The position numbers were made by a program, and so were the translations under genes. From the NCBI GenBank assembly GCA_002841025.1, contig PHDQ01000001.1:1-51224 (forward strand): 51,224 nt of DNA, read 5' to 3'. Each line of letters starts with the position of its first letter. Within the stretch, counting starts at the first letter, position 1. This document shows, piece by piece, positions 10,038-28,320 of this stretch. This DNA comes from Bacteroidetes bacterium HGW-Bacteroidetes-13 (GTDB taxonomy: Bacteria; Bacteroidota; Bacteroidia; Flavobacteriales; Flavobacteriaceae). The notes beneath the pieces are model-generated. The model made no database searches. It saw nothing but the letters and a program-made list of their open reading frames with translations, and was not told the DNA's origin.

Positions 10038-13000
10038 TTACATGCCTCTGTATAGCTCCAATCTTTCCCATTTGGTGTTCACTTCTTCTTGTGCTTGTTT
10101 TAGCAGTTCAGCGCCTAATTGGGCGTTTTCTTTCACCACCCTGGAAAAACGTGTTTCTTTATACATAAAGTCGCTCAACGGAGCTGCAGGTGCTTTGGAA
10201 TCCAATCTGAATTTTTCACCTTTGGGTTTTGACGGATCAAATCTGAACAACGGCCAATAGCCTGTTTCTACCGCCTTTTCTTGATGCATTGCGCCATCTT
10301 TAAGATCGTAACCGTGTTCTCCACAATGAGAATATGCGACAATCAATGAAGGTCCGGGGTAAGCCGCTGCTTCTTCTATGGCTTTCAGGGTTTGTAAATC
10401 TTTAGCTCCGATGGCCACTTGCGCGACATATACGTTGCCATAAGAAATAGCTTGAAGCGCGATGCTTTTTTTGCCGGTTCTTTTTCCGGATACGGAGAAT
10501 TTAGCACTCGCACCCAGCGGTGTTGCTTTGGATGTTTGCCCGCCGGTGTTCGAGTAAACCTCGGTATCCATCACCATGATGTTGATGTCTTCTCCGGAAG
10601 CCAATACGTGATCGACACCGCCATAACCAATATCGTATGCCCAACCGTCGCCACCCAAAATCCAAACTGCTTTTTTGCGCAGGTATTCGGTAAGTTGAAT
10701 CAACTTGTTGGCATTTTCATTGTTGTCGATGATAGACAAAACTTTTTTAAGTTCGTCAATGTCAGCAAATTTCTGATTTTTTTGCGTTTCGGTTTCCTCC
10801 GGATTTTCTAAAATAGATTCTACCAATTCGCTACCTATCAAAAGTTCTAATGATTTCAATAAACCGACGGCGATTTCCTGTTTTTTGGTCAGTGCCAATT
10901 TCATACCCAAACCAAACTCTGCATTGTCTTCAAACAAGGAGTTTGCCCAAGCAGGTCCTCTTCCGAATTCATTGGTTTTGTATGGAGTGGTCGGTAAATT
11001 TCCACCATAAATGGAAGAACAACCCGTTGCGTTTGCAATCAAAATTTTATCGCCAAAAAGTTGGGTGAGCATTTTGATGTATGGGGTTTCTCCACAACCC
11101 GAACAAGCACCAGAAAACTCAAACAGCGGCTCTAAAAATTGAGATCCTTTCACATTGGTTATTTGCAATTCTTCTCGGTTGTAATAAGGCAGTTTTACGA
11201 AATAATCCCAATTGGCATTTTCTTCCACGCCCACATCCAATTTTTTGCGCATGTTGATGGCCTTGAAATCGTCAATGTCTTTGCTGATAGCCGGACAGAC
11301 TGCCACACACAAATCGCAACCGGTACAATCTTCTGGAGAAACCTGAAGTACATACGATTCCAATTCGCTGTTAAAAGGTCTTCCTTTTGCGGGAACGGCT
11401 TTTAAAGAAGACGGAGAGCCTGCCAATTCGCTGTTTGAAACAACTTTGGCACGAATGGCAGCGTGCGGACAGATGGCGATGCATTTGTTGCATTGTGTAC
11501 ACAAATTGGCATCGTCCCAAACCGGAATAAAATCTGCAATGCCTCGTTTTTCATATTGGGTAGTTCCCATTGGAAAAGTTCCGTCTATCGGGAAGGCACT
11601 CACAGGAAGTTCATCGCCATATCCGGCTAAGATTTTTTCCAATACCTCTTTGACAAATCCGTCAGGAGCATTTCGCATGGCTGACAACAATTGTTTTTCG
11701 CTGGAAACCTTTTTCGGATAGTCAACTTTTTGCAATCCTGCCAAAGATTTATCAACCGCATCAAAGTTCATTTTTACGATTTTTTCACCTTTGTGCGAGT
11801 AGGTTTTGACAATGGCATCTTTTATTTTCTGAATGGCTTCTTCTTTGGGTAAGATTCCTGAAATGGCGAAGAAACAGGTTTGCAAAACTGTGTTGGTGCG
11901 TTTTCCCAAATTGGCTTCTTGTGCAACTTTATTGGCATCAACCACATACAATTGCGCTTCCTTTTTGATGATTTCTCTTTGAAGTTTTTCGGGGAACTGA
12001 TCCCAAATTTCATCTTTGGAAAATGGTGAATTCAACAAAAATGTTCCACCTTGTTTAAGGTCGGCCAACATATTGTATTTCTCAATGAAATTGAATTGAT
12101 GACTGGCTATAAAATCTGCTTTGTCAATCAAATAAGTCGAGTAAATCGGGTCGGGTCCGAAACGCAAATGCGATATGGTCTGCGCACCTGCTTTTTTGGA
12201 GTCATAGACAAAATAACCCTGTACGTAGTTATCGGTAGTCTCTCCGATAATTTTGATGGAGTTTTTATTGGCACCGACTGTTCCGTCAGAACCCAGACCG
12301 TAAAACATGCAATTGACGGTAGTCCGTTCGATTTCGAAATTATAATCCGGCTCCAGACTGGTGTGTGTTACATCGTCATAAATTCCTACGGTAAAGTGGT
12401 TTTTTGGTTTATCTTTCAACAACTCATCATATATACCTTTAACCATTTTGGGTGTAAACTCTTTCGATGACAATCCGTAGCGACCACCTACCACAACCGG
12501 CATTTTTCGGTTGCTTTCTGCAAAGGCTGAAATAACATCCATATACAAAGGTTCGCCGATGCTTCCCGGCTCTTTGGTGCGGTCTAAAACGGCAATTTTT
12601 TGAACAGTTTTGGGTAATTCACTCAAAAACCGATTGATGGAGAAAGGTCTGTATAAACGGATGAATAAGGCGCCTACTTTTTCGCCTTTTTTCAACATGG
12701 CGTCGATGGCTTCTTTGACGGCACCTTCCCCGGATCCCATGATGATAATTACGCGTTCTGCTTCCGGATGCCCGATATAATCAAACAAACTGTATTTTCG
12801 TCCGGTGTGAAGGTAAAATTCATCCATCACTTGCTGAACGACTTCCGGTACTTTGTCATAAAACGAATTTGCCGCTTCCCGAGCTTGAAAAAATACATCC
12901 GGATTTTGTGAAGTTCCCCTGACAACCGGATGATCGGGATCTAAAGAGCGTTTTTTGTGCTCCATGATTCTGTCTTCCGGCATCATCGCTTTGATGATGT

Positions 13001-13571
13001 CATCCGGTATGGAGTCTATTTTTGATATTTCATGGGAAGTCCTGAATCCGTCAAATATATTGAGAAATGGAATACGGGTTTGTAGCGTTGCAACTTGCGA
13101 AATCAGCGCAAAATCTTGTGCCTCTTGAACCGATCCGCCAAACAACATGGAGAATCCTGTCTGACGAGTCGCCATCACATCTGAGTGATCACCAAAAATG
13201 GATAGTGCATGCGTTGCGACCGTTCTGGCAGCAACATGGATGACAGTTGGCAATAGCTCTCCGGCAATTTTATACATGTTTGGAATCATCAACAGCAAAC
13301 CTTGAGAGGCCGTGAAAGTGGTAGTCAAAGCACCTGCTTGTAAAGATCCGTGAACCGCTCCGGCTGCTCCACCTTCACTTTGCATTTCGACGATTCTCGG
13401 TACATTTTCCCAGATATTTTTTTTGCCTTTCGAGCTGTAAACATCCACATGTTCGCCCATTGGCGAAGCAGGCGTGATTGGATAAATTGCGCAGACTTCA
13501 TTGGTTTTGTGGGCAACTCTGGCAACTGCCTCATTGGCATCACAGATTAATTTTGAAAACTTTTTTTTCAT
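10038..13571 (-). CDS. nifJ: Pyruvate:ferredoxin (flavodoxin) oxidoreductase, single-chain PFOR
   Basis: 1177-aa ORF with two ferredoxin-type cluster motifs (CTQCNKCIAICPHAAI, CTGCDLCVAVCPAI) and the TPP motif GGDGWAYDIGYGG. The length and domain order are typical of NifJ/PFOR. Confidence 0.95.
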   Translation of the reverse strand: MKKKFSKLICDANEAVARVAHKTNEVCAIYPITPASPMGEHVDVYSSKGKKNIWENVPRIVEMQSEGGAAGAVHGSLQAGALTTTFTASQGLLLMIPNMYKIAGELLPTVIHVAARTVATHALSIFGDHSDVMATRQTGFSMLFGGSVQEAQDFALISQVATLQTRIPFLNIFDGFRTSHEISKIDSIPDDIIKAMMPEDRIMEHKKRSLDPDHPVVRGTSQNPDVFFQAREAANSFYDKVPEVVQQVMDEFYLHTGRKYSLFDYIGHPEAERVIIIMGSGEGAVKEAIDAMLKKGEKVGALFIRLYRPFSINRFLSELPKTVQKIAVLDRTKEPGSIGEPLYMDVISAFAESNRKMPVVVGGRYGLSSKEFTPKMVKGIYDELLKDKPKNHFTVGIYDDVTHTSLEPDYNFEIERTTVNCMFYGLGSDGTVGANKNSIKIIGETTDNYVQGYFVYDSKKAGAQTISHLRFGPDPIYSTYLIDKADFIASHQFNFIEKYNMLADLKQGGTFLLNSPFSKDEIWDQFPEKLQREIIKKEAQLYVVDANKVAQEANLGKRTNTVLQTCFFAISGILPKEEAIQKIKDAIVKTYSHKGEKIVKMNFDAVDKSLAGLQKVDYPKKVSSEKQLLSAMRNAPDGFVKEVLEKILAGYGDELPVSAFPIDGTFPMGTTQYEKRGIADFIPVWDDANLCTQCNKCIAICPHAAIRAKVVSNSELAGSPSSLKAVPAKGRPFNSELESYVLQVSPEDCTGCDLCVAVCPAISKDIDDFKAINMRKKLDVGVEENANWDYFVKLPYYNREELQITNVKGSQFLEPLFEFSGACSGCGETPYIKMLTQLFGDKILIANATGCSSIYGGNLPTTPYKTNEFGRGPAWANSLFEDNAEFGLGMKLALTKKQEIAVGLLKSLELLIGSELVESILENPEETETQKNQKFADIDELKKVLSIIDNNENANKLIQLTEYLRKKAVWILGGDGWAYDIGYGGVDHVLASGEDINIMVMDTEVYSNTGGQTSKATPLGASAKFSVSGKRTGKKSIALQAISYGNVYVAQVAIGAKDLQTLKAIEEAAAYPGPSLIVAYSHCGEHGYDLKDGAMHQEKAVETGYWPLFRFDPSKPKGEKFRLDSKAPAAPLSDFMYKETRFSRVVKENAQLGAELLKQAQEEVNTKWERLELYRGM

Positions 13572-13767
13572 AATGAATGTGTATAATTATTTAAAAAAAA
13601 TCGGATTGTAACTGCGTCCAAAATTTCCCTGAAACAGCTTACAACCATCAACAAGAAATGAACGTATTAAAAACTTTATAAAATTATCAATCTTAAAAAT
13701 CACAGAATATGACATTTGTCAGGTATTATATACTATCTGAAAATAAGTTAGATAGAGATATAAATTC

Positions 13768-13806
13768 AAAAAAAAAATCACTCCTTATTAATTGGGAGTG
13801 ATTTTT
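13768..13806. terminator. Bidirectional Rho-independent terminator between the ferredoxin gene and PFOR
   Basis: A-run, then TCACTCC (13778-13784), a 10-nt loop, GGAGTGA (13795-13801) and a T-run. On the minus strand it follows the ferredoxin stop at 13870. Confidence 0.65.
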
Positions 13807-13869: not shown

Positions 13870-14220
13870 TTATTCGCCGTGCAACCAGGCTTTCTTTTCC
13901 AAAAGAAATGCTTCGGTTTCAACATGATCTTTGTCCGGAACACAACAATCAACCGGGCAAACTTTGGCACATTGCGGTTCGTCATGAAATCCTTTGCATT
14001 CCGTACATTTGTCTGAAACGATAAAATAAAATTCGTCTGAATAAGGTTTGTTTTCCTTGTCTGCATCTATTTCTTTTCCTTGCAGGTTTGTAACGACTCC
14101 GCTCAGTGCGGTTTCATCGGAGTAAGACCAATTTTGATCGGGTTCGTAGATAGCATGATTCGGGCACTCAGATATACAAGCGTCGCAGTTTATGCATTCT
14201 TCTGTTATGATAATTGCCAT
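13870..14220 (-). CDS. 2x[4Fe-4S] dicluster ferredoxin (YfhL-like)
   Basis: 116 aa with CINCDACISECP near the N-terminus and a C-terminal CAKVCPVDCC motif. Confidence 0.85.
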   Translation of the reverse strand: MAIIITEECINCDACISECPNHAIYEPDQNWSYSDETALSGVVTNLQGKEIDADKENKPYSDEFYFIVSDKCTECKGFHDEPQCAKVCPVDCCVPDKDHVETEAFLLEKKAWLHGE

Positions 14221-14315
14221 GTTTTGTGGGTGTTATGATTAAATAATTGTAAAATTAAGTAAAACTTCATTACCTTTAACTGACAAAAATCATGTTTCAT
14301 TCTAAAAAATGAAAA

Positions 14316-14323
14316 TAATTTTG
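14316..14323 (+). promoter_or_regulatory. Candidate -7 box (TAATTTTG) for korA
   Basis: It matches TAnnTTTG 57 nt upstream of the korA ATG. It lies inside the 159-bp divergent region shared with the ferredoxin gene. Confidence 0.35.
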
Positions 14324-14379
14324 ACCTCATAGAAAAGCATTTTATTCATGCTTTAAAAAGGTCTAAAACTTTTCAACTT

Positions 14380-16233
14380 ATGATAACAGATAAAGAAATA
14401 TTGCAACCCGAAGTATTGGAAGCAGTGGTAATTCGGTTTGTCGGTGATTCCGGTGATGGAATGCAGTTAACCGGTTCACAATTCTCCGACACTTCAGCTA
14501 TGTTTGGCAACGATGTTGCAACATTCCCCAACTATCCATCCGAAATTAGAGCACCTCAAGGCAGTTTATATGGTGTTTCCGGATTTCAGGTTCACATTGG
14601 AAGTGTCGAAATCAGCACACCCGGCGATCAGGTAGATTTGTTGGTGGCAATGAATCCTGCGGGTTTGAAAACCAATTTATACGCAGTAAAACCCGGTCAT
14701 ACCATCATAGTCGATACCGATTCATTCAACAAAAAGAATCTGGAAAAAGCACAATACGACACCAATCCCTTGGAAGACGGCAGTCTTGAGAATTATCGAA
14801 TCATCGAAGTTGCCATGTCGTCCTTGACAAAAGAAGCCTTGAAAGAGGTGGAAGGATTAGATAATAAAATGATTACCCGAAGCAAGAATATGTTTGCCTT
14901 GGGCATGGTCTATTGGATGTACAACCGTTCTACTGCACACACCATCGAATTTTTCAACAAGAAATTTAAAAATACGCCCAATCTAATCGAATCAAATACC
15001 AAAGTGCTGAACGCCGGATTTTATTTTGCGGAAACTTTGGAATTGATTCCAAATGCTTACACCATTTCTCCAGCCAAGATGAGACCCGGAAAATACCGAA
15101 TCATCATGGGCAATACCGCCACGGCTTGGGGATTTTTGGCAGCAGCCGAAAAATCGGGCATGGAATTGTTTTTGGGTTCATATCCCATCACACCGGCAAC
15201 CGATATACTTCACGAATTGGTCAAACACAAACATTTTGGTGTCAAAGCTTTTCAGGCCGAGGATGAAATAGCGGGCATAACTTCTGCCATCGGTGCATCT
15301 TTTGCCGGCGATTTGGCCATTACGACCACGTCCGGACCCGGATTGGCACTAAAAGGTGAAGCCATCGGTTTGGCAGTGATGACAGAATTGCCATTGGTGA
15401 TTGTCAATGTACAGCGAGGCGGTCCTTCTACTGGCTTGCCAACCAAAACAGAACAATCGGATTTGCTTCAAGCCATGTATGGCAGAAACGGCGAAAGTCC
15501 GGTTATCGTGATTGCAGCCAGCACGCCTGCCAACTGTTTCAACTTTGCTTACGAAGCAGCCAGATTGGCTTTAGAACACATGACTCCCGTGATTTTGTTA
15601 ACCGACGGTTACATTGCCAACGGATCGGCTCCTTGGAAAATAAGAACTGTCGATGAAATGCCGGAAATCAGAAACAACAAAATCTTGGCACCAACCGAAA
15701 ATTGGTATCCTTATAACCGAGATGAGATTACTTTGGCGCGTAATTGGGCAGTACCCGGAACCAAGGATTTGGAACACCGTATTGGCGGACTCGAAAAAGA
15801 TAAAGTGACCGGAAACGTGTCTTATGTGCCCGAAAACCACGAATATATGACCCATATCCGGGCAGAAAAAATAAGAAGGGTGCAATACAATATCCCCGAA
15901 ATAAAAACAGAATTTGCCGATGAAGGAGATTTGTTGATAGTCGGGTGGGGTGGAACCTATGGAACTTTGCATACAGCTGCCAAACAGTTGGATGAAGAGG
16001 GATTTAAAAATGTAGGTTTTGCACATTTCAACTACATCAATCCGCTGCCAAAAAATACGGAAGACGTGCTCAAACGATTTAAAAAAATAGTGGTTTGTGA
16101 GTTAAACTCCGGACAGTTTTCCAAAATTTTAAAAATAAACTTCAACGGATTGGACATCACTCAATTTAACAAAGTACAAGGTCTTCCGTTTTCAAACGAT
16201 GAGCTTATTCAACAATTTAAAAAATGGATCTAA
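14380..16233 (+). CDS. korA: 2-oxoglutarate (2-oxoacid):ferredoxin oxidoreductase, alpha subunit
   Basis: 617 aa, the typical KorA length. The sequence shows the fused gamma/alpha domain architecture (VIRFVGDSGDGMQLTG..., GSYPITPATDILHEL). Confidence 0.9.
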   Translation: MITDKEILQPEVLEAVVIRFVGDSGDGMQLTGSQFSDTSAMFGNDVATFPNYPSEIRAPQGSLYGVSGFQVHIGSVEISTPGDQVDLLVAMNPAGLKTNLYAVKPGHTIIVDTDSFNKKNLEKAQYDTNPLEDGSLENYRIIEVAMSSLTKEALKEVEGLDNKMITRSKNMFALGMVYWMYNRSTAHTIEFFNKKFKNTPNLIESNTKVLNAGFYFAETLELIPNAYTISPAKMRPGKYRIIMGNTATAWGFLAAAEKSGMELFLGSYPITPATDILHELVKHKHFGVKAFQAEDEIAGITSAIGASFAGDLAITTTSGPGLALKGEAIGLAVMTELPLVIVNVQRGGPSTGLPTKTEQSDLLQAMYGRNGESPVIVIAASTPANCFNFAYEAARLALEHMTPVILLTDGYIANGSAPWKIRTVDEMPEIRNNKILAPTENWYPYNRDEITLARNWAVPGTKDLEHRIGGLEKDKVTGNVSYVPENHEYMTHIRAEKIRRVQYNIPEIKTEFADEGDLLIVGWGGTYGTLHTAAKQLDEEGFKNVGFAHFNYINPLPKNTEDVLKRFKKIVVCELNSGQFSKILKINFNGLDITQFNKVQGLPFSNDELIQQFKKWI

Positions 16234-17249
16234 TTATGGAAGCTACAACAGTTGAGAAATATACGTTCAAAGATTTTACCAGCGACCAAGAAGTGAGATG
16301 GTGTCCGGGTTGCGATGATTACGTCATCTTGCGATCCATGCAAAAAGCACTACCCGAAATGGGACTTAAAAGAGAAGATGTCGTGTTTATTTCAGGCATT
16401 GGATGTTCCTCCCGGTTTCCGTATTATATGGACACTTATGGCATGCACAGCATCCACGGTCGGGCAACAGCTGTCGCCTCCGGAGTGAAATTAGCCAATC
16501 CGAAATTGAGCGTTTGGGTCGTAACCGGTGACGGTGACTCGATGGCTATCGGCGGCAATCACTTCATTCATGTGTTGCGAAGAAACATCAATTTGAATAT
16601 TCTTCTTTTTAACAACGAAATCTACGGACTCACCAAAGGGCAATTTTCACCTACTTCCTTGGTCGGTCAAAAAACAAAATCATCACCCTACGGAAACACA
16701 CAACCTCCGTTTTCGCCGGGTGAATTAGCCATCGGTGCCCAAGCGCGGTTTTTTGCCAGAATCGGTGGAAACACGCCCAAAGAAATGACAGAGCTTTTTA
16801 TCCAAGCGGAAAAATTCAAAGGAACATCACTGATTGAAATACTGCAAAACTGTGTGATTTTTAACGACAATTGCTTTGTAAAATACACTGATAAAGATGT
16901 TCGCGAAGACAAACAACTCTTCGTTGAACATGGCAAACCGATGATTTTTGGTAAAAACAAAGACAAAGGTTTGGTGTTGAATCGCCTCAAATTGGAAGTT
17001 GTCACCCTTGGAGAAAATGGAATTACGGAAGTAGATATTTTGGTACACGATGCCAAAGAACAAGATCCAACTTTGCACCAGATGCTGGTCAGATTGGAAT
17101 ACCCGTTGGTTACCGGTATCATCCGAAGTTTTGATGATGTGACCCTTGAAGAAAGAGAGGATGCACTTACCGCTAAGGTAAAAGCAGGCTCTAATTTTAC
17201 CAAAACCGATGATTTGTTTTTTTCCGGAGAAACTTATGAGATTGTTTAA
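16224..17249 (+). CDS. korB: 2-oxoglutarate (2-oxoacid):ferredoxin oxidoreductase, beta subunit
   Basis: RWCPGCDDY Cys motif and TPP motif GDGDSMAIGGNH. The alternative ATG at 16236 (MEATTVEKY...) lies 2 nt after the korA stop and is equally plausible. Confidence 0.9.
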   Translation: MDLIMEATTVEKYTFKDFTSDQEVRWCPGCDDYVILRSMQKALPEMGLKREDVVFISGIGCSSRFPYYMDTYGMHSIHGRATAVASGVKLANPKLSVWVVTGDGDSMAIGGNHFIHVLRRNINLNILLFNNEIYGLTKGQFSPTSLVGQKTKSSPYGNTQPPFSPGELAIGAQARFFARIGGNTPKEMTELFIQAEKFKGTSLIEILQNCVIFNDNCFVKYTDKDVREDKQLFVEHGKPMIFGKNKDKGLVLNRLKLEVVTLGENGITEVDILVHDAKEQDPTLHQMLVRLEYPLVTGIIRSFDDVTLEEREDALTAKVKAGSNFTKTDDLFFSGETYEIV

Positions 17250-17385: not shown

Positions 17386-17736
17386 ATGGGATCGGAAGCA
17401 ATTATTGTTTTTTTCTTAGCCGGAGTCGTCTTGGTTGCCGGAGCGAATTTTTTATCGAGTCTGATTTCTCACAAATCGGACAATCCGCAAAAACGAGAAC
17501 CTTACGAAAGCGGTATGAAAACCATCGGTCCTACTTGGGTTCAGTTTAAAGTGGGCTATTATTTATTTGCCATCCTATTCCTGATTTTCGATGTGGAAGT
17601 TGCTTTTCTGATTCCTTGGGCAGTCGTTTTCAAGGATGTCGGTTCGGTTGCTTTAATTGAAATCATCATATTTCTCGTCATTTTGGGATTGGGATTGTTA
17701 TACGCATGGAAAAAAGGAGCATTAAAATGGGAATAG
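17386..17736 (+). CDS. nuoA: NADH-quinone oxidoreductase-like complex, subunit A
   Basis: 116 aa with 3 TM segments and the conserved PYESGM and FLIFDVE motifs. Confidence 0.9.
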
Positions 17737-20038: not shown

Positions 20039-21097
20039 ATGATACGATTTTTCAGCATCACAAAAAATATACACGAATGGCTCTTCAACTTGATGCCCGA
20101 AAGCGTGGCAAGTGTTGTAGAAATGATATTAATAGCGGTCGTGTATTTGCTAATTTTTGCGGTAGCCGGACTTTATTTGGTGTTACTCGAAAGAAGAGTA
20201 GCAGCTTGGTTTCAGTTGCGTATTGGGCCTAACAGAGTGGGTTATCAGGGCTTGTTGCAAACCATGGCTGACGCGCTGAAATTGGTTTCAAAAGAACTTA
20301 CGGGAACTGAAAAAGCAGACAAATTTTTATACAATCTCGCACCGTATTTTGTCATCATATCTTCTTTGATGGCTCTGTCTGTTTTTCCTTTTACACAAGA
20401 TTTTCAGGCTTTTGACATCAATATCGGTCTGCTGTTTTTGATTGCGATTTCATCCATCGGTGTTATCGGAATTTTGTTGGGTGGCTGGAGCAGTAACAAC
20501 AAGTTTGCCTTGATTGGTGCCATGCGCAGCGGCGTGCAAACCATCAGTTATGAACTTTCAGTAGGGCTTTCGTTACTCACCATGGTTTTGTTGACCGGAA
20601 GTTTGCAATTGTCTGAAATCGTAGAAGTTCAAAAAGGTGGCTGGTTGATTGTTCAGGGACACATTCCCGCGGTCATCGCCTTTATGATTTATATGATAGC
20701 CGGAACTGCCGAAACCAATCGCGCACCTTTTGACTTGGTAGAAGCCGAATCGGAATTGGGTGCGGGCTTTCACACCGAATACTCGGGAATGAAATTCGCA
20801 TACTTCTTTTTGGCGGAGTTTATCAACATGTTTATCATCGCGGCGATTGCCACAACCGTATTTTTTGGGGCTTGGCTGTCACCTTTCGGAATCACCGAAT
20901 CTATCCCGATACTGGGTGTGGTTTGGTTTTTGGGAAAAACGCTGATTTTGGTTTTTTTGATGATGTGGTTCAGGTGGACTTTTCCAAGATTGAGAATCGA
21001 TCAACTGTTGACGCTGGAATGGAAATATTTATTGCCAATCAATCTAATTAATATAGTCGTTATGGCATTTGTGGTCTGGCTTAAAATAACCATTTAA
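20039..21097 (+). CDS. nuoH: Complex I subunit H (ND1 homologue)
   Basis: Polytopic membrane protein with ERRVAAWFQLRIGPNRVG and AETNRAPFDLVEAESEL motifs. The ORF-track start at 20018 is a TTG and the first ATG is at 20039. Either way it begins within 11 nt of the nuoD stop, leaving no room for nuoE/F/G. Confidence 0.92.
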   Translation: MIRFFSITKNIHEWLFNLMPESVASVVEMILIAVVYLLIFAVAGLYLVLLERRVAAWFQLRIGPNRVGYQGLLQTMADALKLVSKELTGTEKADKFLYNLAPYFVIISSLMALSVFPFTQDFQAFDINIGLLFLIAISSIGVIGILLGGWSSNNKFALIGAMRSGVQTISYELSVGLSLLTMVLLTGSLQLSEIVEVQKGGWLIVQGHIPAVIAFMIYMIAGTAETNRAPFDLVEAESELGAGFHTEYSGMKFAYFFLAEFINMFIIAAIATTVFFGAWLSPFGITESIPILGVVWFLGKTLILVFLMMWFRWTFPRLRIDQLLTLEWKYLLPINLINIVVMAFVVWLKITI

Positions 21098-21130
21098 AGA
21101 AAATTTCATATAAAGAATATCGATTAAAAA

Positions 21131-21297: not shown

Positions 21298-21328
21298 ATG
21301 GCTTTTTGGAATTTGAAATTATAAAAGT

Positions 21329-21805
21329 ATGAGCTATTTTTCAGACATATACAGCGGAATAAAAACATTGCTAACCGGCATGAGCGTTACCGGAAAATAT
21401 TTTTTGCATGCGAGAAAAGGTGCCATTACCCAACAATATCCGGACAATCGGGCGACTTTGAAAATGTTTGATCGTTTTCGGGGTGAAGTGGTTATGCCGC
21501 ATGACGAAAACAATGAGCACCAATGTACAGGTTGTCAAAAATGCGAACTGGCTTGTCCCAATGGAAGTATTGAGATCATCTGGGACAGGGGAATCGACGA
21601 AACCACCGGAAAAAAGAAGAAAAAAATAGATCAACACATCTACCATTTGGGCATGTGCACCATGTGCGGATTGTGTATAGAAGCCTGCCCGACCGATGCG
21701 ATAGTCTGGGCACAAAATTTTGAAAATTCGGTTTACGACCGAACCAAGCTCACGAAAGTTTTAAACCAACCCGGATCTAAGGTAAAAGCCGGCATAGAAG
21801 ACTAA
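21329..21805 (+). CDS. nuoI: Complex I subunit I (2x[4Fe-4S], TYKY homologue)
   Basis: CTGCQKCELACP and CTMCGLCIEACP motifs, 158 aa. Confidence 0.92.
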   Translation: MSYFSDIYSGIKTLLTGMSVTGKYFLHARKGAITQQYPDNRATLKMFDRFRGEVVMPHDENNEHQCTGCQKCELACPNGSIEIIWDRGIDETTGKKKKKIDQHIYHLGMCTMCGLCIEACPTDAIVWAQNFENSVYDRTKLTKVLNQPGSKVKAGIED

Positions 21806-21809: not shown

Positions 21810-22313
21810 ATGGAAAGAATTATATTTTACACACTGGCGTTGATAATTGTCGTTTTTGCCATTGCCTCAGTCAGCAGCCGGAAAATGCTCCGGTCGGTTA
21901 TTTATTTGCTGTTTGTGCTTTGCGGAATTGCGGGATTTTATTTTTTGATTGATTATAACTTTCTGGCAGCCATTCAACTGACAGTTTACGCGGGCGGCAT
22001 CATCGTATTGTTGATTTTTTCGGTCATGCTGGTTCACCACATCGAAATGGAGTTGGAAGTAGTGAAAAAAGCGAGACAAATTTTGGTAGGGTTGCTATGT
22101 CTCATCGGACTTGGCGTGTTTTTGATTACGATTTATACGCATCCGTTCGTGGTCGTTGAAAACCAAATAACTACCACAACAGCCGATATTGGGTACAAAC
22201 TTTTGAGCTATGATGATGGCGGATTTATTTTGCCATTTGAGGTGATTAGTGTGCTTTTGTTGGCGGCGATGATTGGAGCGATAGTCATCGCAAAAAAAGT
22301 CGGGAGTGAGTAA
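21810..22313 (+). CDS. nuoJ: Complex I subunit J (ND6 homologue)
   Basis: 167-aa polytopic membrane protein in the conserved operon position, with a VYAGGIIVLLIF motif. Confidence 0.88.
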   Translation: MERIIFYTLALIIVVFAIASVSSRKMLRSVIYLLFVLCGIAGFYFLIDYNFLAAIQLTVYAGGIIVLLIFSVMLVHHIEMELEVVKKARQILVGLLCLIGLGVFLITIYTHPFVVVENQITTTTADIGYKLLSYDDGGFILPFEVISVLLLAAMIGAIVIAKKVGSE

Positions 22314-22334: not shown

Positions 22335-22418
22335 GAAACTTGAAACTTGAAACTTGAAACTTGAAACTTGAAACTTGAAACTTGAAACCTCCTGCCTGCC
22401 GGCAGGGAAACTTGAAAC
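22335..22418 (+). repeat. (GAAACTT)x7 array interrupted by a 12-bp perfect palindrome, in the nuoJ-nuoK spacer
   Basis: GAAACTT occurs seven times over 22335-22383, followed by GAAACC. Then comes the perfect palindrome CCTGCCGGCAGG (22395-22406), and the repeat resumes as GAAACTTGAAAC (22407-22418). Confidence 0.95.
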
Positions 22419-22439: not shown

Positions 22440-22757
22440 ATGATTACAGGAATCAGCCTTTACGAAATACTCACCGTTACTTCCATTATTTTCTTTGTGG
22501 GCGTTTACGGCTTCATTACGCGAAAAAATTTGATATCCGTATTGATTTCCATCGAATTGATTCTCAATGCTTCCGCAGTTAATTTTGTGGCTATCAACAA
22601 GTATTTATACCCCGAAGCCTTGCAGGGAGTGGTTTTTTCCATTTTTATCATCGCTGTTGCGGCTGCCGAAACTGCGTTGGCGGTTTCAATCATCATCAAT
22701 CTTTACAGACAAATCAGCTCGGTGGAGGTAAAGGACACCGAAATTATGAAGTATTAA
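22440..22757 (+). CDS. nuoK: Complex I subunit K (ND4L homologue)
   Basis: 105 aa with 3 TM segments and a ...AVAAAETALAVSII motif. Confidence 0.9.
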   Translation: MITGISLYEILTVTSIIFFVGVYGFITRKNLISVLISIELILNASAVNFVAINKYLYPEALQGVVFSIFIIAVAAAETALAVSIIINLYRQISSVEVKDTEIMKY

Positions 22758-22769
22758 CATCTTGAAAAT

Positions 22770-24689
22770 ATGAACCTTAGCTACACCATACTCATCCTAC
22801 TTGTTCCACTGACCGTTTTTCTATTGCTCGGAATTTTCAATCAAAAAATCAAACCGGCAGTTTCCGGATACATCGGGGTTTTTGGTCTGTTTGTCTCGAC
22901 CGTTTTGTCTTATTTCACGGCTTATCAGTACTTTTTTGTGTTTGGTAAGTTGGAGGGGGTTTATCAAACTTTTGCCCAAAAAACAGTTTGGATGAATTTC
23001 ACCGATACGCTTCACATCGACATGGGTGTCTTGATTGACCCGATTTCTGTGATGATGCTGGTTGTGGTTTCGACGATATCGCTCATGGTACATATTTACA
23101 GTCGGGGCTATATGAAAGGGGATGAAGGCTATACCCGATTTTTTGCGTTTCTGTCTTTGTTTACTTTTTCCATGTACGGTTTGGTTTTGGCAACCAATCT
23201 TTTTCAAATCTATATTTTCTGGGAATTGGTTGGGGTCTCATCCTTTTTGCTGATTGGATATTACTACACCAAACCTTCGGCAGTTGCAGCCGCCAAAAAA
23301 GCGTTTATCGTCACCCGATTTGCCGATTTGGGTTTTTTAATTGGTATTTTAATCATCGGGTTTTATACCGGCACCTACGATTTTGAAACTTTAAACAACC
23401 CCGAAGGTGCCGCCATCCTCAATTGGGCTTCGGGTTCATTTATGGGTTTGTCCATACTCACTTGGGCATTGATATTGATTTTTATTGGAGGCGCGGGCAA
23501 ATCTGCCATGTTTCCTTTACACATTTGGTTACCTGATGCCATGGAAGGGCCGACGCCGGTTTCTGCGTTGATTCACGCTGCAACGATGGTGGTTGCGGGT
23601 GTTTTTCTGGTCGCTCGATTGTTTCCGATGTATTATTTTGTGGAAGATGGATTTGCGCTGAAAGTTGTGGCTTTTGTGGGTGCTTTTTCGTCCCTGTTTG
23701 CCGCTGTCATCGCGATTACGCAAACCGACATCAAACGGGTTTTGGCATTCTCTACCATGTCACAATTGGGTTATATGATGTTGGCACTTGGCGTTTCGGG
23801 ATACGACGGACATGAAGGTGTAGGTTATATGGCATCCATGTTTCATTTGTTTACGCACGCCATGTTTAAGGCACTTCTTTTCTTGGGCGCAGGCTCGGTT
23901 ATACACGCTGTTCACAGCAATTATTTGAAAGACATGGGCGGATTGCGCAAGTATATGCCTGTCACAAACATCACCTTTTTGATTGCTGCCTTGGCGATCG
24001 CCGGCGTACCGCCATTTGCGGGATTTTGGAGTAAAGATGAAATTTTAGCAGCCGCATTTGAACAAAACAAACTGATTTATTTTGTTGGCGTTTTTGTCGC
24101 CGGACTGACGGCATTTTATATGTTTCGTATCTACTTTGGTATTTTTTGGGGAAAAGAAACAAAGTACAAACATCCGCCGCATGAGTCGCCTGTTTCGATG
24201 ACTTTTCCGTTGATGGTATTGGCGTTTCTGAGTATTGTAGTCGGATTCATACCGTTTAGCGAATTCATCACTGCCGACAAAGCCGGATTTGAAGCGCATC
24301 TTAATTACCCGCTTGCAGCCGTAGCGGTAGGTGTGGGGTTGATTGGAATCGGATTGGCGTATGTTTTTTACAAGAAAGAAAATGACTTGGCGGAAAGATT
24401 CTCAATCGCTTTTGGTTTTTTTTATATTTGGACATTCCACAAGTTCTATTTTGATGAAATTTATCTGTTCGTTACCAAGAAAATCTTGTTTCAACGCATT
24501 TCTTGGCCAATCTCCAAATTCGATAAAAAATATGTGGACGGCACCATGGAAGGAATTGGAAACAAGACCGTTTTAATCTCTGAAAAAATAAAAGGATTGC
24601 AATCCGGTAAATTTCAAGATTATGCATTTGCCTTTGTATCTGGCGTTGTCGTGTTGGCATTGGTTTTTATTTACTTTTTGAATTATTAA
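22770..24689 (+). CDS. nuoL: Complex I subunit L (ND5 homologue, antiporter-like)
   Basis: 639-aa polytopic protein with WELVGVSSFLLIGYY, PLHIWLPDAMEGPTPVSALIHAATMV and a long C-terminal lateral-helix region. Confidence 0.93.
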   Translation: MNLSYTILILLVPLTVFLLLGIFNQKIKPAVSGYIGVFGLFVSTVLSYFTAYQYFFVFGKLEGVYQTFAQKTVWMNFTDTLHIDMGVLIDPISVMMLVVVSTISLMVHIYSRGYMKGDEGYTRFFAFLSLFTFSMYGLVLATNLFQIYIFWELVGVSSFLLIGYYYTKPSAVAAAKKAFIVTRFADLGFLIGILIIGFYTGTYDFETLNNPEGAAILNWASGSFMGLSILTWALILIFIGGAGKSAMFPLHIWLPDAMEGPTPVSALIHAATMVVAGVFLVARLFPMYYFVEDGFALKVVAFVGAFSSLFAAVIAITQTDIKRVLAFSTMSQLGYMMLALGVSGYDGHEGVGYMASMFHLFTHAMFKALLFLGAGSVIHAVHSNYLKDMGGLRKYMPVTNITFLIAALAIAGVPPFAGFWSKDEILAAAFEQNKLIYFVGVFVAGLTAFYMFRIYFGIFWGKETKYKHPPHESPVSMTFPLMVLAFLSIVVGFIPFSEFITADKAGFEAHLNYPLAAVAVGVGLIGIGLAYVFYKKENDLAERFSIAFGFFYIWTFHKFYFDEIYLFVTKKILFQRISWPISKFDKKYVDGTMEGIGNKTVLISEKIKGLQSGKFQDYAFAFVSGVVVLALVFIYFLNY

Positions 24690-24693
24690 AACT

Positions 24694-26184
24694 ATGGATA
24701 TTCTAACTCTTTTCATCATTGTCCCGGTCTTGACTGTTGCAGTCTTGTTGTTTTCAAAAGGCTTGAAACAAGTACGTGTCGTTTCCATGATTGGAAGTAT
24801 TATTCAATTGGGAATGGCCATTAATTTGGTATTCGCCTATTTTAAAGAGCGAGCGGTGAATACTGAAATCATGGTATTTATAAAGGATGTCGTGTGGTTT
24901 AAAAATTTTAATATTCATTATCAGGTAGGTGTTGACGGTATCTCGGTGGCTTTGTTATTGTTAACAGCTATCGTGGTTCTTGCGGGCGTATTTATTTCCT
25001 GGAAAACCAGCGAATTGCCAAAGGAATTTTTCATTTCGCTCATTGTGCTTTCCGTAGGGGTTTATGGCGTTTTTATATCCATTGATTTGTTTACCTTGTT
25101 TGTGTTCTTCGAAATTGCGGTAATACCCATGTATTTGCTGATAGGTATTTGGGGATCAGGACCTAAAGAATATTCAGCCATGAAGTTGACCTTAATGCTC
25201 ATGGGAGCTTCGGCGGTTTTATTGGTGGGTATCTTGGGAATTTACTTTAATTCAAATGCGGATGGGGGTCCTTTAACTTTCAATATTTTGGATATTGCTC
25301 AGGTACATATTCCGATCGCGGCACAAAAATTATTTTTTCCATTTGTATTCATCGGTTTTGCGGTGATCAGTGCTTTGTTTCCATTCCATACTTGGTCACC
25401 TGATGGTCACGCTTCTGCACCAACCGCCGTATCCATGTTGCACGCTGGTGTTTTGATGAAATTAGGCGGTTACGGGGTGTTTAGAATTGCCATGTTTCTG
25501 CTGCCTGCCGGTGCATTGCATTGGTCTTGGTTTTTTATCATTTTAGCAGCTACAGGAGTTGTTTATGGTGCGTTTTCAGCCATCAGACAAACCGATTTGA
25601 AATACATCAATGCGTATGCTTCTGTAAGCCATTTGGGATTGGTGTTGTTTGCCTTGTTAACCCTCAATAAAATCGCTTGGAACGGAGCCATCATCCAATC
25701 CTTATCGCATGGTTTGCTGACAGCCCTGTTTTTTGCGCTTATCGGGATGATTTATGGCAGGACACACACAAGAGACATCAGTAAATTAGGAGGCTTGATG
25801 AAAATTTTACCTTTTATTGGAGCTATTTATGTCATCACCGGATTGGCGTATTTAGGCTTGCCGGGCTTTAGTGGTTTTGTCGCAGAAATGAACATTTTTG
25901 TGGGTGCTTTCCAACAAAATTCGGACATGTTTCACAGAATCCTTACCGTTTTGGTCGTGTCCTCAATCGTGGTGACCTCTGTTTACATTCTCAGATTGGT
26001 CGGAAAAATAATGATGGGACCATTGGAAACCAATCACGTAAATGACTTGCCAAAAGCAACTTGGTATGAAAAAACAGGAATTTTATTGTTGATGATTCCT
26101 GTGATTGGAATCGGTGTAGCTCCATTTTGGTTAAGTGATATGATCATGAAAAGTTTAGAGCCATTTATCAAAGGAGTACTTTGA
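24694..26184 (+). CDS. nuoM: Complex I subunit M (ND4 homologue, antiporter-like)
   Basis: 496 aa. FFEIAVIPMYLLIGIWG and HTWSPDGHASAPTAVSMLHAGVLMKLGGYG are typical of NuoM. Confidence 0.93.
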   Translation: MDILTLFIIVPVLTVAVLLFSKGLKQVRVVSMIGSIIQLGMAINLVFAYFKERAVNTEIMVFIKDVVWFKNFNIHYQVGVDGISVALLLLTAIVVLAGVFISWKTSELPKEFFISLIVLSVGVYGVFISIDLFTLFVFFEIAVIPMYLLIGIWGSGPKEYSAMKLTLMLMGASAVLLVGILGIYFNSNADGGPLTFNILDIAQVHIPIAAQKLFFPFVFIGFAVISALFPFHTWSPDGHASAPTAVSMLHAGVLMKLGGYGVFRIAMFLLPAGALHWSWFFIILAATGVVYGAFSAIRQTDLKYINAYASVSHLGLVLFALLTLNKIAWNGAIIQSLSHGLLTALFFALIGMIYGRTHTRDISKLGGLMKILPFIGAIYVITGLAYLGLPGFSGFVAEMNIFVGAFQQNSDMFHRILTVLVVSSIVVTSVYILRLVGKIMMGPLETNHVNDLPKATWYEKTGILLLMIPVIGIGVAPFWLSDMIMKSLEPFIKGVL

Positions 26185-26217
26185 TGATGGTTGTCAATCG
26201 TTAAAAAAAAATGAAGC

Positions 26218-26453
26218 AAGACTCAGCAAACAAGAATAAAGACCCAGGAATCTATACAGTTAGAAACTCGGAGGTTGTTACGATTTCCCGGAAGCGAAAC
26301 CGCCTTTAAGGAAGTCAGAAGCTTGTTGGCTGAGCGTCTGCCTGCCGGCGGGCAGGGAGTCGAAGCCACCATTTGGATAGGCAAACGTATAAATAAAAAT
26401 ACTCAGTACGAAGTTAATTTACGGAAAATCTTGATTCTTGTTTCCTGAGTCTT
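26218..26453. repeat. 236-bp non-coding insert bounded by 20-bp inverted repeats (MITE-like) in the nuoM-nuoN spacer
   Basis: AAGACTCAGCAAACAAGAAT (26218-26237) compared with the reverse complement of ATTCTTGTTTCCTGAGTCTT (26434-26453) gives 19/20 matches. The interior carries a GC palindrome and GAGTCGAAG/CTGAGCG modules. Confidence 0.6.
26329..26367 (+). repeat. Modular GC-rich element: GCTGAGCG + palindrome + GAGTCGAAGCC
   Basis: GCTGAGCG spans 26329-26336. TCTGCCTGCCGGCGGGCAGG (26337-26356) is a self-complementary stem with one G.T pair. GAGTCGAAGCC spans 26357-26367. Confidence 0.85.
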
Positions 26454-26499
26454 GATTTCTTTAAAAGATAACATTTTATTAAAACACAAACACAAAACC

Positions 26500-27939
26500 A
26501 TGACCCTCAATAGTTTTTCATTCATGCGACACGAAATTTTGCTTTTAGCAATCATCATGCTGTTGCTGATAGCTGAGATTTTCATTTCTAAAAACAAGAA
26601 AAACAGCATCGTTCATTTGGCGGTATTGTTGTTTGGAATGCATACAGTTGTTGGCATTTTCTCGATGGGCGAGGGGAGCCTGTTCGGTGGCATGTTTTAC
26701 ACGAACAACCTGATTCATTTCTTTAAAAATGTACTCAACATCGGTGTATTTATTCTATTGTTGCAATCAGCCGATTGGCTACAGGAAAAAATCGTCTCCC
26801 AAAACAGAGGAACTGAGTTTTTCTTATTGCTTTTTTCTTCCCTGTTAGGCATGTATTTTATGATATCATCCGGCGATTTTTTGATGTTCTACATCGGGTT
26901 GGAATTGTCAACTTTGCCGGTAGCAGCTTTGGCAGCTTATGAAACATCCAAACGAATATCGAGTGAAGCGGGCATCAAATTTATTCTTTCTGCCGGACTT
27001 GCTTCCGGGACTGCTTTGTTTGGTATCACCTTGTTCTATGCAACTTCCGGATCTATTTACTTCGACGACATCAGCCTACTAATTGCTTCCAACAACCTGA
27101 CCATTTTGGCATTTATTCTCTTTTTTACGGGTTTGGCATTCAAAATATCATTGGTTCCTTTTCATTTCTGGACTGCAGATGTTTATGAAGGTGCGCCCAT
27201 CAGCGTGGCTTCTTATCTGTCGGTCATTTCCAAAGGAGCGGCGGTATTTATTTTGATGATATTGCTCTTTACCGTACTCAAACCGCTGATGCATATTTGG
27301 GAAAACGTATTGTATTTGATTGCGCTTGCCACCATGTTTACGGGTAATTTATTTGCGCTGCGTCAACAAAACATGAAGCGATTTTTGGCTTTTTCATCCA
27401 TTGCACAAGCGGGTTTTATATTGTTGGGTTTGGTCACAGGAACGCAATTAGGGACAGCCACAGTAGTCTATTTCGTGATGATTTATATCTTTTCTAACTT
27501 GGCCGCTTTCGGTGTGGTGCAAGCGATTTCCTTAAAAACCGGTAAAGAAAACATGAATGATTATGAAGGTCTCTACCGAACCAACCCCAATTTGAGTTTG
27601 GTGATGATGTTGGCTTTGTTTTCATTGGCGGGTATTCCACCGGTAGCCGGATTTTTCGGTAAGTTTTTCCTGTTTACCGCTGCTGCGAGCAAGGGTTATT
27701 ATCTCTTGGTTTTTTTGGCAGTTGTCAACGTTACGATTTCACTTTATTACTATCTTTTGGTAATCAGAGCCATGTTTCTCCGAACCAATGACAATGCCAT
27801 TCCGTTTTTTAAAAATAAAATCTATATGCGATTGGGTTTGATTATCACAGTTTTGGGAATACTGACACTTGGATTATACAGCCCATTGTATGACTATATC
27901 TATGAATTGAGTAGTAGCTTGTGTGGTTGTACTTTATGA
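26500..27939 (+). CDS. nuoN: Complex I subunit N (ND2 homologue, antiporter-like)
   Basis: Polytopic protein with VPFHFWTADVYEGAPISVASYLSVISKGA. The ORF-track start at 26452 is a TTG inside the repeat element. The first ATG (MTLNSFSF...) is at 26500. Confidence 0.9.
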   Translation: MTLNSFSFMRHEILLLAIIMLLLIAEIFISKNKKNSIVHLAVLLFGMHTVVGIFSMGEGSLFGGMFYTNNLIHFFKNVLNIGVFILLLQSADWLQEKIVSQNRGTEFFLLLFSSLLGMYFMISSGDFLMFYIGLELSTLPVAALAAYETSKRISSEAGIKFILSAGLASGTALFGITLFYATSGSIYFDDISLLIASNNLTILAFILFFTGLAFKISLVPFHFWTADVYEGAPISVASYLSVISKGAAVFILMILLFTVLKPLMHIWENVLYLIALATMFTGNLFALRQQNMKRFLAFSSIAQAGFILLGLVTGTQLGTATVVYFVMIYIFSNLAAFGVVQAISLKTGKENMNDYEGLYRTNPNLSLVMMLALFSLAGIPPVAGFFGKFFLFTAAASKGYYLLVFLAVVNVTISLYYYLLVIRAMFLRTNDNAIPFFKNKIYMRLGLIITVLGILTLGLYSPLYDYIYELSSSLCGCTL

Positions 27940-27996
27940 GTTATGAATTATGAATTATGAGTTTTAAGTTATTTGTCATTTGAAATTTTAAAAATT
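27934..27996 (+). repeat. Nine-unit heptamer array spanning the gap from the nuoN stop to the next start
   Basis: The units are TTATGAG TTATGAA TTATGAA TTATGAG TTTTAAG TTATTTG TCATTTG AAATTTT AAAAATT. The nuoN TGA (27937-27939) lies in unit 1 and the next ATG (27997) follows unit 9. Confidence 0.9.
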
Positions 27997-28320
27997 ATGT
28001 CATTAGAAGGAAAACATTCATTTGGTAGCATCGGGGAAACTCGGGTGACCTTTGTAGAGAAAAACACAGATGAAACTCGGAAGAATTTCCTTGAAAAACT
28101 GCTGATACACAACGGATTTGAGGTAATCATCGATGAAATAGAAAAAAAATCGGAGGAAGACCCGCAACTTTACACGGTCGCCGTAACCGACATGGTTTTT
28201 AATCCCACAATTTGGGTTTATGAACGCAAACTCAAAACCTTTGACGGACACAAAGTAACCCCGGCTTATTGGGAACAAAAAACGGAAGACACCAACCCGA
28301 TGTATTGGAAGAATTCATAG
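27997..28320 (+). CDS. Hypothetical soluble protein at the tail of the nuo operon
   Basis: 107 aa counted from the first ATG (the ORF-track TTG at 27973 lies inside the heptamer array). It has acidic, soluble composition and I recognise no motif. Confidence 0.55.
   Translation: MSLEGKHSFGSIGETRVTFVEKNTDETRKNFLEKLLIHNGFEVIIDEIEKKSEEDPQLYTVAVTDMVFNPTIWVYERKLKTFDGHKVTPAYWEQKTEDTNPMYWKNS

Follow-up and report, generated by a model that had tools for sequence, protein, structure and literature searches.

A korAB–nuo gene cluster in Flavobacteriaceae points to ferredoxin as a possible electron donor of a NuoEFG-less complex I

Gene content of the cluster

The stretch of DNA analysed here (the window; 51,224 nucleotides of contig PHDQ01000001.1 from the Flavobacteriaceae genome Bacteroidetes bacterium HGW-Bacteroidetes-13) carries genes for an 11-subunit, "headless" complex I (Nuo11) that lacks NuoE, NuoF and NuoG, together with genes for the 2-oxoacid oxidoreductase KorAB, a pyruvate:ferredoxin oxidoreductase (PFOR) and a ferredoxin (fdx). 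The order on the forward strand is korA-korB-nuoABCDHIJKLMN, followed by orf107, a conserved gene for a protein of 107 aa. The fdx gene diverges from korA, and the PFOR gene is next after fdx on the reverse strand. Gene identities rest on Pfam and NCBIfam profile searches, with scores read against the family cut-offs:

9477..9857, reverse strand: 126-aa open reading frame (ORF) with seven Cys, 3′ of the PFOR gene, a conserved neighbour
10038..13571, reverse strand: PFOR, single-chain NifJ type, 1177 aa (TIGR02176, 1717 bits against a cut-off of 911, residues 9-1172)
13870..14220, reverse strand: ferredoxin (fdx), 116 aa, Alvin/YfhL-type 2[4Fe-4S] (NF033683, 93 against 86)
14380..16233, forward strand: korA, alpha subunit of a two-subunit 2-oxoacid:acceptor oxidoreductase (TIGR03710, 647.7 against 482.75)
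16224..17249, forward strand: korB, thiamine pyrophosphate-binding beta subunit (TPP_enzyme_C in Pfam; TIGR02177, 248.2 against 261.9)
17386..17736, forward strand: nuoA (PF00507, E 1e-36)
17706..18323, forward strand: nuoB, with the four cluster-N2 Cys; the true start is possibly ATG 17727 (PF01058; TIGR01957, 241 against 143)
18439..18900, forward strand: nuoC, short form of 153 aa, not fused to nuoD (PF00329; TIGR01961, 126 against 122)
18901..20028, forward strand: nuoD, short form of 375 aa (PF00346)
20039..21097, forward strand: nuoH (PF00146, E 3e-116)
21329..21805, forward strand: nuoI, 2 x CxxCxxCxxxCP, eight Cys (Fer4 families; TIGR01971, 92.7 against 113)
21810..22313, forward strand: nuoJ (PF00499)
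22440..22757, forward strand: nuoK (PF00420)
22770..24689, forward strand: nuoL (NF005141, 644 against 556)
24694..26184, forward strand: nuoM (TIGR01972, 417 against 264)
26452..27939, forward strand: nuoN (TIGR01770, 372 against 333)
27997..28320, forward strand: orf107, conserved soluble 107-aa protein, after nuoN (synteny and homologue search)

All 11 core subunit families of complex I (NuoABCDHIJKLMN) are present, in canonical order, by both Pfam and NCBIfam. The stop codon of nuoD is the TAA at 20026-20028, and nuoH begins at ATG 20039 (alternative start TTG 20018), 10 nt past that stop, so the junction has no room for any gene. A first-pass annotation of this DNA had given the same boundaries (20028, and 20039 or 20018) and had taken nuoE, nuoF and nuoG to be missing from an operon reading A-B-C-D-H-I-J-K-L-M-N; the profile searches agree on both counts, with no NuoE, NuoF or NuoG domain among the large ORFs scanned over the 51-kb window. 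The four Cys that ligate cluster N2 in NuoB lie in SCCAIE, GACA and PGCPP motifs, the two CxxCxxCxxxCP motifs of NuoI supply the ligands of N6a/N6b, and an alignment with a solved 49-kDa subunit shows that the His (QHPATHG) and Tyr (DRMDYLS) of the quinone site are retained in NuoD. From these motifs the complex I core looks functional. NuoI is the most divergent subunit of the soluble arm, because its TIGR01971 score of 92.7 falls below the subfamily cut-off of 113. It would also be the expected point of electron entry into a headless complex, which is precisely where the divergence is seen.

On the donor side, PFOR is a NifJ-type enzyme, with the single-chain architecture (POR_N, PFOR_II, POR, EKR, Fer4 and TPP_enzyme_C by Pfam) and an equivalog-level match to the hidden Markov model (HMM) of that family. 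The ferredoxin is of the Alvin/YfhL type by motif and HMM. It has CxxCxxCxxxCP and CxxCx8CxxxCP motifs and an isoelectric point of 4.4, and the closest solved ferredoxins (3EXY, 1BLU, 2ZVS, 2FGO and 1RGV; E ~1e-15), all Alvin-type, match it in two stretches flanking an insert. This insert of about 34 aa (residues 27-60) accounts for its length of 116 aa, against 80-86 aa in the family. KorA scores above the TIGR03710 cut-off, and its best solved relative in the Protein Data Bank (PDB) is the 2-oxoglutarate:ferredoxin oxidoreductase (OGOR) of Magnetococcus (6N2N, E 9e-70); KorB falls just under the TIGR02177 cut-off (248.2 against 261.9). The substrate of KorAB is probably 2-oxoglutarate, judged at family level. 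The first-pass annotation had stated that specificity outright and had placed korA and korB immediately upstream of nuo on the same strand; the coordinates agree with the placement, whereas the substrate is a family-level guess.

Conservation of the gene order

Related loci were gathered with NuoD as the query and one genome per species, which gave 80 loci at 89-98% NuoD identity, all labelled Flavobacteriaceae, other Flavobacteriales or unclassified Bacteroidota; each feature was counted solely in loci with sufficient flank. nuoD and nuoH are adjacent in 77 of the 80 loci, korB lies directly 5′ of nuoA in 68/70, fdx diverges from korA in every one of 60, and the PFOR gene stands beside fdx in 41 of 54. 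The spacer between korB and nuoA is only 7-28 bp in 34/72 loci, and its shortness in about half of them argues for co-transcription. The closest genome record, an uncultured Flavobacteriaceae metagenome-assembled genome (MAG; L001, JAXMLV01), encodes proteins 94-100% identical through the region and its flanks. Outside the scanned group, Rufibacter soli (Cytophagales; L081) has the identical 18-gene layout. The comparison of fdx/PFOR/korAB/nuo synteny that the first-pass annotation had called for is thus strongly positive.

In a distant lineage, nuoA-N, an orf107 homologue and the PFOR gene all lie on one strand, which reads as an independent architecture that retains the link between PFOR and Nuo11. 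Cultured, oxygen-tolerant carriers of the cluster include Lutibacter maritimus, L. flavus, Eudoraea adriatica, Flavobacterium fluvii and Salegentibacter chungangensis. The Cys-rich 126-aa ORF at 9477-9857 had no match in Pfam and NCBIfam searches. It adjoins the PFOR gene in 33/41 loci, including Rufibacter, whose homologue has a weak HEPN match, and may be a member of the PFOR transcription unit. A gene for an ADP-forming acetyl-CoA synthetase (CoA_binding, Succ_CoA_lig and ATP-grasp_5; L081:19251-21122) adjoins the cluster in R. soli, consistent with conversion of pyruvate via acetyl-CoA to acetate, with formation of ATP.

Some related nuo operons contain inserts. In Maribacter, about 2 kb between nuoC and nuoD (L044:8433-9923; also L036, L039 and L060) encodes a 496-aa signal-peptide protein with two CxxCH haem motifs and no Pfam match, and thus a secreted di-haem protein inside the nuo operon. 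The insert between nuoD and nuoH in locus L041 (11174-11410) is a 78-aa gene of the 23S-rRNA-IVP four-helix-bundle family; loci L057 and L061 have inserts of like size (0.4-0.5 kb) at the same position. For the inserts of Maribacter and L041, a hidden NADH-oxidising module is ruled out by what they encode, a di-haem protein and a 23S-rRNA-IVP protein, respectively.

The surroundings of the cluster and of its ferredoxin gene vary. Directly 3′ of orf107 and convergent to nuo, L003 (19834-21041) and two more loci carry RnfA/E-type (PF02508) and RnfG (FMN_bind) genes. In a planktonic relative (L085:8318-10351) the ferredoxin gene is divergent from genes for a TrxR-like flavoprotein, possibly a ferredoxin:NADP+ reductase, and a 2Fe-2S ferredoxin, beside lepA. 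lepA also adjoins fdx in the Lutibacter loci without PFOR.

Promoters and candidate regulation

The spacer between fdx and korA measures 159 bp (14221-14379); of fdx and the PFOR gene, only fdx abuts it. Aligned across relatives, the spacer is poorly conserved except for a palindrome, aTGAyAAAArTCAt, and two flanking -7 boxes of the Bacteroidota type. The elements in and near it are as follows:

14250..14323, both strands: shared divergent control element, with palindrome TGACAAAAATCA (14281-14292) between two boxes
14316-14323, forward strand: box TAATTTTG facing korA, part of the divergent control element
14250-14257, reverse strand: box TAATTTTA facing fdx, part of the divergent control element
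13766..13803, reverse strand: intrinsic-terminator-like hairpin and T10, 3′ of fdx, with 9-bp arms and 12 pairs in the predicted fold
13679..13721, reverse strand: putative PFOR promoter, with palindrome TGACAAATGTCA (13710-13721), 23 nt, then box TAATTTTA (13679-13686)

The TGA-N6-TCA palindrome is found in 59 of the 60 fdx/korA spacers. On the korA side, exactly 36.5 nt separate the palindrome centre from the end of the TAnnTTT(G/A) box in 57/60; towards fdx the distance is 35.5-36.5 nt in 40/60. TGA-N6-TCA also occurs 5′ of the PFOR gene in 33/45 loci, of which 32 match the stricter TGAY-N4-RTCA, with TGACAnnTGTCA as a related palindrome; it is missing chiefly where the spacer between fdx and the PFOR gene is too short for a separate promoter. 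Some loci have an extra copy of the composite motif before nuoA. Planktonic relatives in which fdx lies away from korAB-nuo keep the -7 box and lack the palindrome.

The composite motif, defined as a TGA-N6-TCA palindrome, 22-24 nt and a TAnnTTT(G/A) box, has exactly three copies in the window, at 14281-14323 (+), 14250-14292 (-) and 13679-13721 (-), facing korA, fdx and PFOR, respectively. Mononucleotide shuffles contain 0.14 copies on average and two at most. The single elements are not above chance in the window (TAnnTTTG, 63 against 59 expected; TGAY-N4-RTCA, 7 against 4.4), and a generic scan for sigma-70 promoters and terminators, which is uninformative for Bacteroidota, gave counts no higher than shuffles. 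Significance is confined to the composite motif and its positional conservation.

The first-pass annotation had the ferredoxin and PFOR genes diverge from one and the same 159-bp control region. This is correct for fdx, but the PFOR gene, on the same strand as fdx, is separated from it by 298 bp, with the terminator-like hairpin between them (dG -13.7 kcal/mol, z -3.7; equally good folds in 0/200 shuffles) and a promoter-like site of its own. Predicted transcription start sites, placed about 6 nt past the box by the Bacteroidota TAnnTTTG consensus, would put the palindrome centre near -42. This resembles the geometry of class II activation by CRP/FNR proteins, from which we infer the type of regulator. 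No gene for such a regulator was found in the 51-kb window. A single regulator appears to control three transcription units (PFOR; fdx; korAB-nuoA-N-orf107).

A conserved twelfth gene, orf107

The ORF at the end of the range, missed in the first-pass annotation, has its true start at 27997 and encodes 107 aa. It follows nuoN directly in 57/57 loci, and relatives at a mere 29-37% identity are still directly 3′ of nuoN in 11-gene operons; in the most distant of these loci the PFOR gene comes next, on the same strand. All 1286 homologues (124 clusters at 50% identity) are annotated as hypothetical and none has a Pfam domain. Attempts to assign a family gave nothing: Pfam and NCBIfam searches had no match, a sequence profile search of the PDB reached a best E of 0.87, and a Foldseek comparison of folds with the PDB found no match (best E 0.3). 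The AlphaFold2 model is a confident one, with a pLDDT of 83.

The Orf107 protein is soluble and mildly acidic, with zero Cys. It is probably an accessory subunit or assembly factor and not a redox carrier. Candidate roles are a twelfth subunit, a ferredoxin-docking factor or an assembly factor.

Proposed electron route and alternatives

The gene order, the motif geometry and their conservation lead us to favour, with moderate confidence, the following reading: the cluster would serve benthic or microaerobic Flavobacteriaceae and some Cytophagales as a respiratory module, conserved and co-regulated, in which oxidation of 2-oxoacids bypasses NADH, with electrons passing from KorAB and PFOR to ferredoxin, Nuo11 and menaquinone, Orf107 assisting, under one CRP/FNR-type activator. 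KorAB would oxidise 2-oxoglutarate and PFOR, where present, pyruvate, both reducing the acidic Alvin-type ferredoxin. Reduced ferredoxin would then pass single electrons to the exposed Fe-S chain of NuoI and NuoB in the 11-subunit complex, menaquinone would be reduced at the conserved NuoD/NuoB site, and protons would be pumped through NuoL, NuoM and NuoN. Orf107 may be a lineage-specific accessory that aids ferredoxin docking or assembly. All three transcription units would be switched jointly by a CRP/FNR-family activator on TGA-N6-TCA, about 42 nt 5′ of the predicted starts, the likely signal being low oxygen or a redox change. Electron transfer from ferredoxin (-450 mV or lower) to menaquinone (-74 mV) yields more energy than transfer from NADH to menaquinone.

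Lutibacter profundi, of a related genus, has a complete genome, and its sequenced relatives carry the same cluster. The gene table drawn up by the authors of that genome lists exactly 11 nuo genes (Lupro_09925-09975), beside korB_2 (Lupro_09980). Further entries are Nqr, an NDH-2-like gene, NAD-dependent dehydrogenases for 2-oxoglutarate and for pyruvate, and several regulators of the Crp/Fnr type; the authors attribute NADH oxidation to Nqr and the NDH-2-like enzyme. Menaquinone-6 is the sole quinone of L. profundi, and growth is microaerobic or aerobic. Since the table has separate routes for NADH, a ferredoxin route would run parallel to them, fitting conditional use.

Several findings weigh against the route through ferredoxin. 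The 80 loci, chosen at NuoD identities of at least 89%, form one clade and are not phylogenetically independent. The PFOR gene is absent from the position next to fdx in Lutibacter and a few others, about a quarter of the loci, and the composite motif is absent from the Rufibacter locus. The 116-aa ferredoxin itself is a housekeeping protein: a copy with 78% identity occurs in planktonic (Tara) Flavobacteriaceae with none of korAB, PFOR or nuo within 10 kb, and the idea of a ferredoxin dedicated to the module was rejected on this ground. In three loci Rnf genes are neighbours of the cluster, so other sinks for reduced ferredoxin are possible. Nor is ferredoxin as the donor of headless NDH-1 a new idea; it is a published and still unproven hypothesis, put forward for Ignavibacterium/Chlorobi, Melioribacter and Prevotella/Phocaeicola. 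The first-pass annotation had seen in the locus a self-contained chain ending in a ferredoxin:quinone oxidoreductase. The association survives, by synteny, the common composite promoter and L. profundi, but "self-contained" does not, given the loci without PFOR, the housekeeping ferredoxin and Rnf; the cluster is better described as an island around a housekeeping ferredoxin gene than as a closed pathway.

Some of these points suit an explanation by co-regulation without coupling, in which the genes share a low-oxygen regulon, ferredoxin passes its electrons to Rnf, a ferredoxin:NAD(P)+ reductase or a hydrogenase, and Nuo11 is fed by some other, unlinked donor. A ferredoxin found without nuo, the TrxR-like flavoprotein beside its planktonic gene and the Rnf genes beside the cluster in L003 and two more loci speak for it; Moparthi and Hagerhall are reported to have found no universal donor for 11-subunit enzymes, and the 11-subunit cluster of Melioribacter is linked instead to a transhydrogenase. 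We nevertheless regard this explanation as unlikely, in view of a korB-nuoA gap of just 7-28 bp in half of the loci, an operon that encodes no other redox input protein, and a PFOR link kept in an independently rearranged lineage. Moreover, without its head the complex must receive electrons at NuoI from a one-electron donor of low potential, and no such carrier other than ferredoxin is encoded nearby. Electrons might instead run backwards, with the proton-motive force driving them uphill from menaquinol to ferredoxin and with KorAB and PFOR acting as 2-oxoglutarate and pyruvate synthases in anaplerotic CO2 fixation. OGOR and PFOR are reversible, the best solved relative of KorA comes from Magnetococcus, which reportedly runs the reductive tricarboxylic acid (TCA) cycle, and 11-subunit enzymes are universal in the green sulfur bacteria that use this cycle. 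The carriers, though, are organoheterotrophs with a complete oxidative TCA cycle, and L. profundi is without ATP-citrate lyase. By an estimate from textbook potentials, lifting an electron pair from menaquinol (-74 mV) to the level of an Alvin-type ferredoxin (-450 mV or lower) costs about 0.8-1.0 eV, roughly at or above the yield of 4 H+ at a typical proton-motive force. With the acetyl-CoA synthetase beside the Rufibacter cluster fitting catabolic pyruvate oxidation as well, reverse operation is improbable.

That Nuo11 is an ordinary NADH dehydrogenase, assembled from this core and from NuoE, NuoF and NuoG encoded elsewhere in the genome, seems to us highly improbable. Split nuo loci are known (ndhGHI at a third locus in Melioribacter; one nuoEFG set for two cores in Syntrophobacter), and the absence of nuoEFG observed here covers the 51-kb window. 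Against this stand the direct succession of nuoD and nuoH in 77/80 loci, the short forms of NuoD (375 aa) and NuoC (153 aa), a NuoI under its subfamily cut-off, and a Bacteroides fragilis Nuo without NADH activity. The complete-genome table of L. profundi has no nuoEFG either, the table being its authors' selection and not an exhaustive search.

An extension of the ferredoxin route is more speculative, and we hold it to be quite unlikely. KorAB (and PFOR) could serve as exchangeable input heads on the NuoI/NuoC/NuoD face, directly or through ferredoxin and Orf107, making a proton-pumping 2-oxoglutarate (or pyruvate):menaquinone oxidoreductase supercomplex. Orf107 would then be a previously unknown docking subunit for ferredoxin or for 2-oxoacid:ferredoxin oxidoreductases (OFORs), like NdhS in function and unrelated to it in sequence and fold.

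Should ferredoxin indeed feed Nuo11, the TCA cycle and pyruvate oxidation could give benthic Flavobacteriaceae extra energy at low oxygen. Thousands of Bacteroidota genomes would then contain "complex I" annotations in need of revision, and a function could be given to the 1286 hypothetical proteins of a large family. The cultured oxygen-tolerant carriers make the donor question directly testable; a ferredoxin:menaquinone assay, pull-downs and knock-outs are straightforward to design.

Other features of the window

Beyond orf107, positions 28423-31780 encode a DUF2231 membrane protein, an OmpR-type response regulator, a HAMP histidine kinase and a rubrerythrin. These genes are conserved only in the near-identical MAG L001 and are probably not part of the module. 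The rubrerythrin hints at oxidative-stress handling.

Perfect 7-bp tandem repeats fill several nuo spacers (AATTATG x6.9, AACCAGT x8.4, GAAACTT x7.7 and TTATGAG x5.6, at 21130-21298, 22335-22388, 27934-27972 and 17346-17378). Judged by gene starts, these spacers look much shorter in many related loci, and such repeats are unusual inside an essential-looking operon; they may affect transcript processing or be prone to slippage. A GC-rich palindrome (CTGCCTGC..GCAGGCAGG) occurs in three nuo spacers (18344-18361, 22389-22410 and 26320-26345, the last in the 267-bp gap between nuoM and nuoN) and once between unrelated genes (42948-42966). These four matches, against 0.01 expected, look like a repetitive extragenic palindromic (REP) or miniature inverted-repeat transposable element (MITE).

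Elsewhere in the window, GC content drops to 0.29 at 38001-40000, against about 0.40 in the rest, around a gene for a 493-aa Fic/DOC-domain protein (38173-39654), and this region may be a horizontally acquired islet. At 45285-46996, two error-prone polymerase genes, one umuD-like (Peptidase_S24) and one umuC-like (IMS), overlap in their reading frames.

Comparison with known systems

Complex I in its headless, 11-subunit form is familiar from Bacteroidota and Chlorobi. The donor of NuoEFG-less complex I beyond cyanobacteria and a few archaea has been unsettled since at least 2011, and in earlier comparative studies no donor gene showed consistent linkage to NuoEFG-less operons. The first-pass annotation had called the donor of the Bacteroidota enzyme unsettled, and the literature bears this out: in B. 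fragilis, where deletion of nuo leaves NADH:quinone activity undiminished, the donor is drawn as "unknown Xred", and a 2024 study still treats the question as open. The Nuo of Bacteroides, Prevotella and Phocaeicola and of Chlorobi/Ignavibacteria belongs to the same phylum-level group as Nuo11 and shares with it the nuoABCDHIJKLMN operon without nuoEFG, the menaquinone chain and the proposed role of ferredoxin. It differs in that the hosts here are aerobic to microaerobic Flavobacteriaceae and Cytophagales, and in that the operon here is joined to korAB, has a promoter region in common with the ferredoxin gene and has a 107-aa ORF at its end. Prevotella has a reported NuoCD subunit, whereas nuoC and nuoD are separate genes here.

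The closest functional analogues are the flavodoxin-using complex I of Campylobacter jejuni and cyanobacterial NDH-1. As here, C. jejuni has a complex I without an NADH site and a small low-potential carrier that takes electrons from 2-oxoglutarate and pyruvate oxidoreductases (OOR and POR). Weerakoon and Olson are said to have found in 2008 that this complex is fed by flavodoxin, itself reduced via OOR and POR. To our knowledge, the oor and por genes of C. jejuni are not within its nuo operon. C. jejuni also keeps NuoG and has two substitute genes at the nuoE and nuoF positions, for more than 11 subunits, in contrast to the 10-nt nuoD-nuoH gap and the lack of NuoG domains in the window, and its carrier is a flavodoxin where that of the window is a 2[4Fe-4S] ferredoxin.

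Cyanobacterial and chloroplast NDH-1 shares the 11-subunit core without NuoEFG, and NdhH is as similar to the NuoD of the window as Thermus Nqo4 is (E ~1e-86). Schuller et al. reportedly demonstrated by experiment in 2019 that ferredoxin is the donor of cyanobacterial NDH-1. That complex uses a plant-type 2Fe-2S ferredoxin and plastoquinone, unlike the 2[4Fe-4S] ferredoxin here, and cyanobacterial and chloroplast NDH-1 requires extra small soluble subunits for ferredoxin docking. Counterparts of NdhS, NdhV and NdhO, accessory subunits specific to the oxygenic complexes, were not detectable here, the sole extra gene being orf107, which has no Pfam, NCBIfam, PDB sequence or fold match.

Desulfitobacterium hafniense has the same nuoABCDHIJKLMN operon. 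Its 11-subunit enzyme is required with pyruvate or lactate, which release electrons in the cytoplasm, PFOR and a ferredoxin co-vary with it, and both are the top candidate donors by co-expression. D. hafniense differs in being a strictly anaerobic Firmicute whose candidate donors are genomically unlinked, with neither ferredoxin gene near PFOR and no relative of orf107 reported. For the donor-side pair, Dorner and Boll reportedly showed in 2002 that the two-subunit 2-oxoglutarate:ferredoxin oxidoreductase KorAB of the facultative anaerobe Thauera aromatica reduces an Alvin-type 2[4Fe-4S] ferredoxin. The T. aromatica ferredoxin (1RGV) is among the best PDB matches of the ferredoxin here. It feeds benzoyl-CoA reductase and not a respiratory complex, and the 34-aa insert is a feature of the ferredoxin here.

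No prior description of the korAB-nuo linkage, the ferredoxin promoter sharing, the PFOR-inclusive motif or orf107 was found in the searchable literature, which omits most subscription journals. What is new, then, is the operon-level fusion with korAB, the promoter region common with the ferredoxin gene, the regulatory motif found also at PFOR, and the orf107 family. In this clade the candidate donor enzymes, the carrier, the complex and a twelfth gene are physically linked, apparently under one regulator. As strong but indirect evidence, the cluster appears to be the clearest genomic pointer to date towards the feeding of a headless complex I by ferredoxin.

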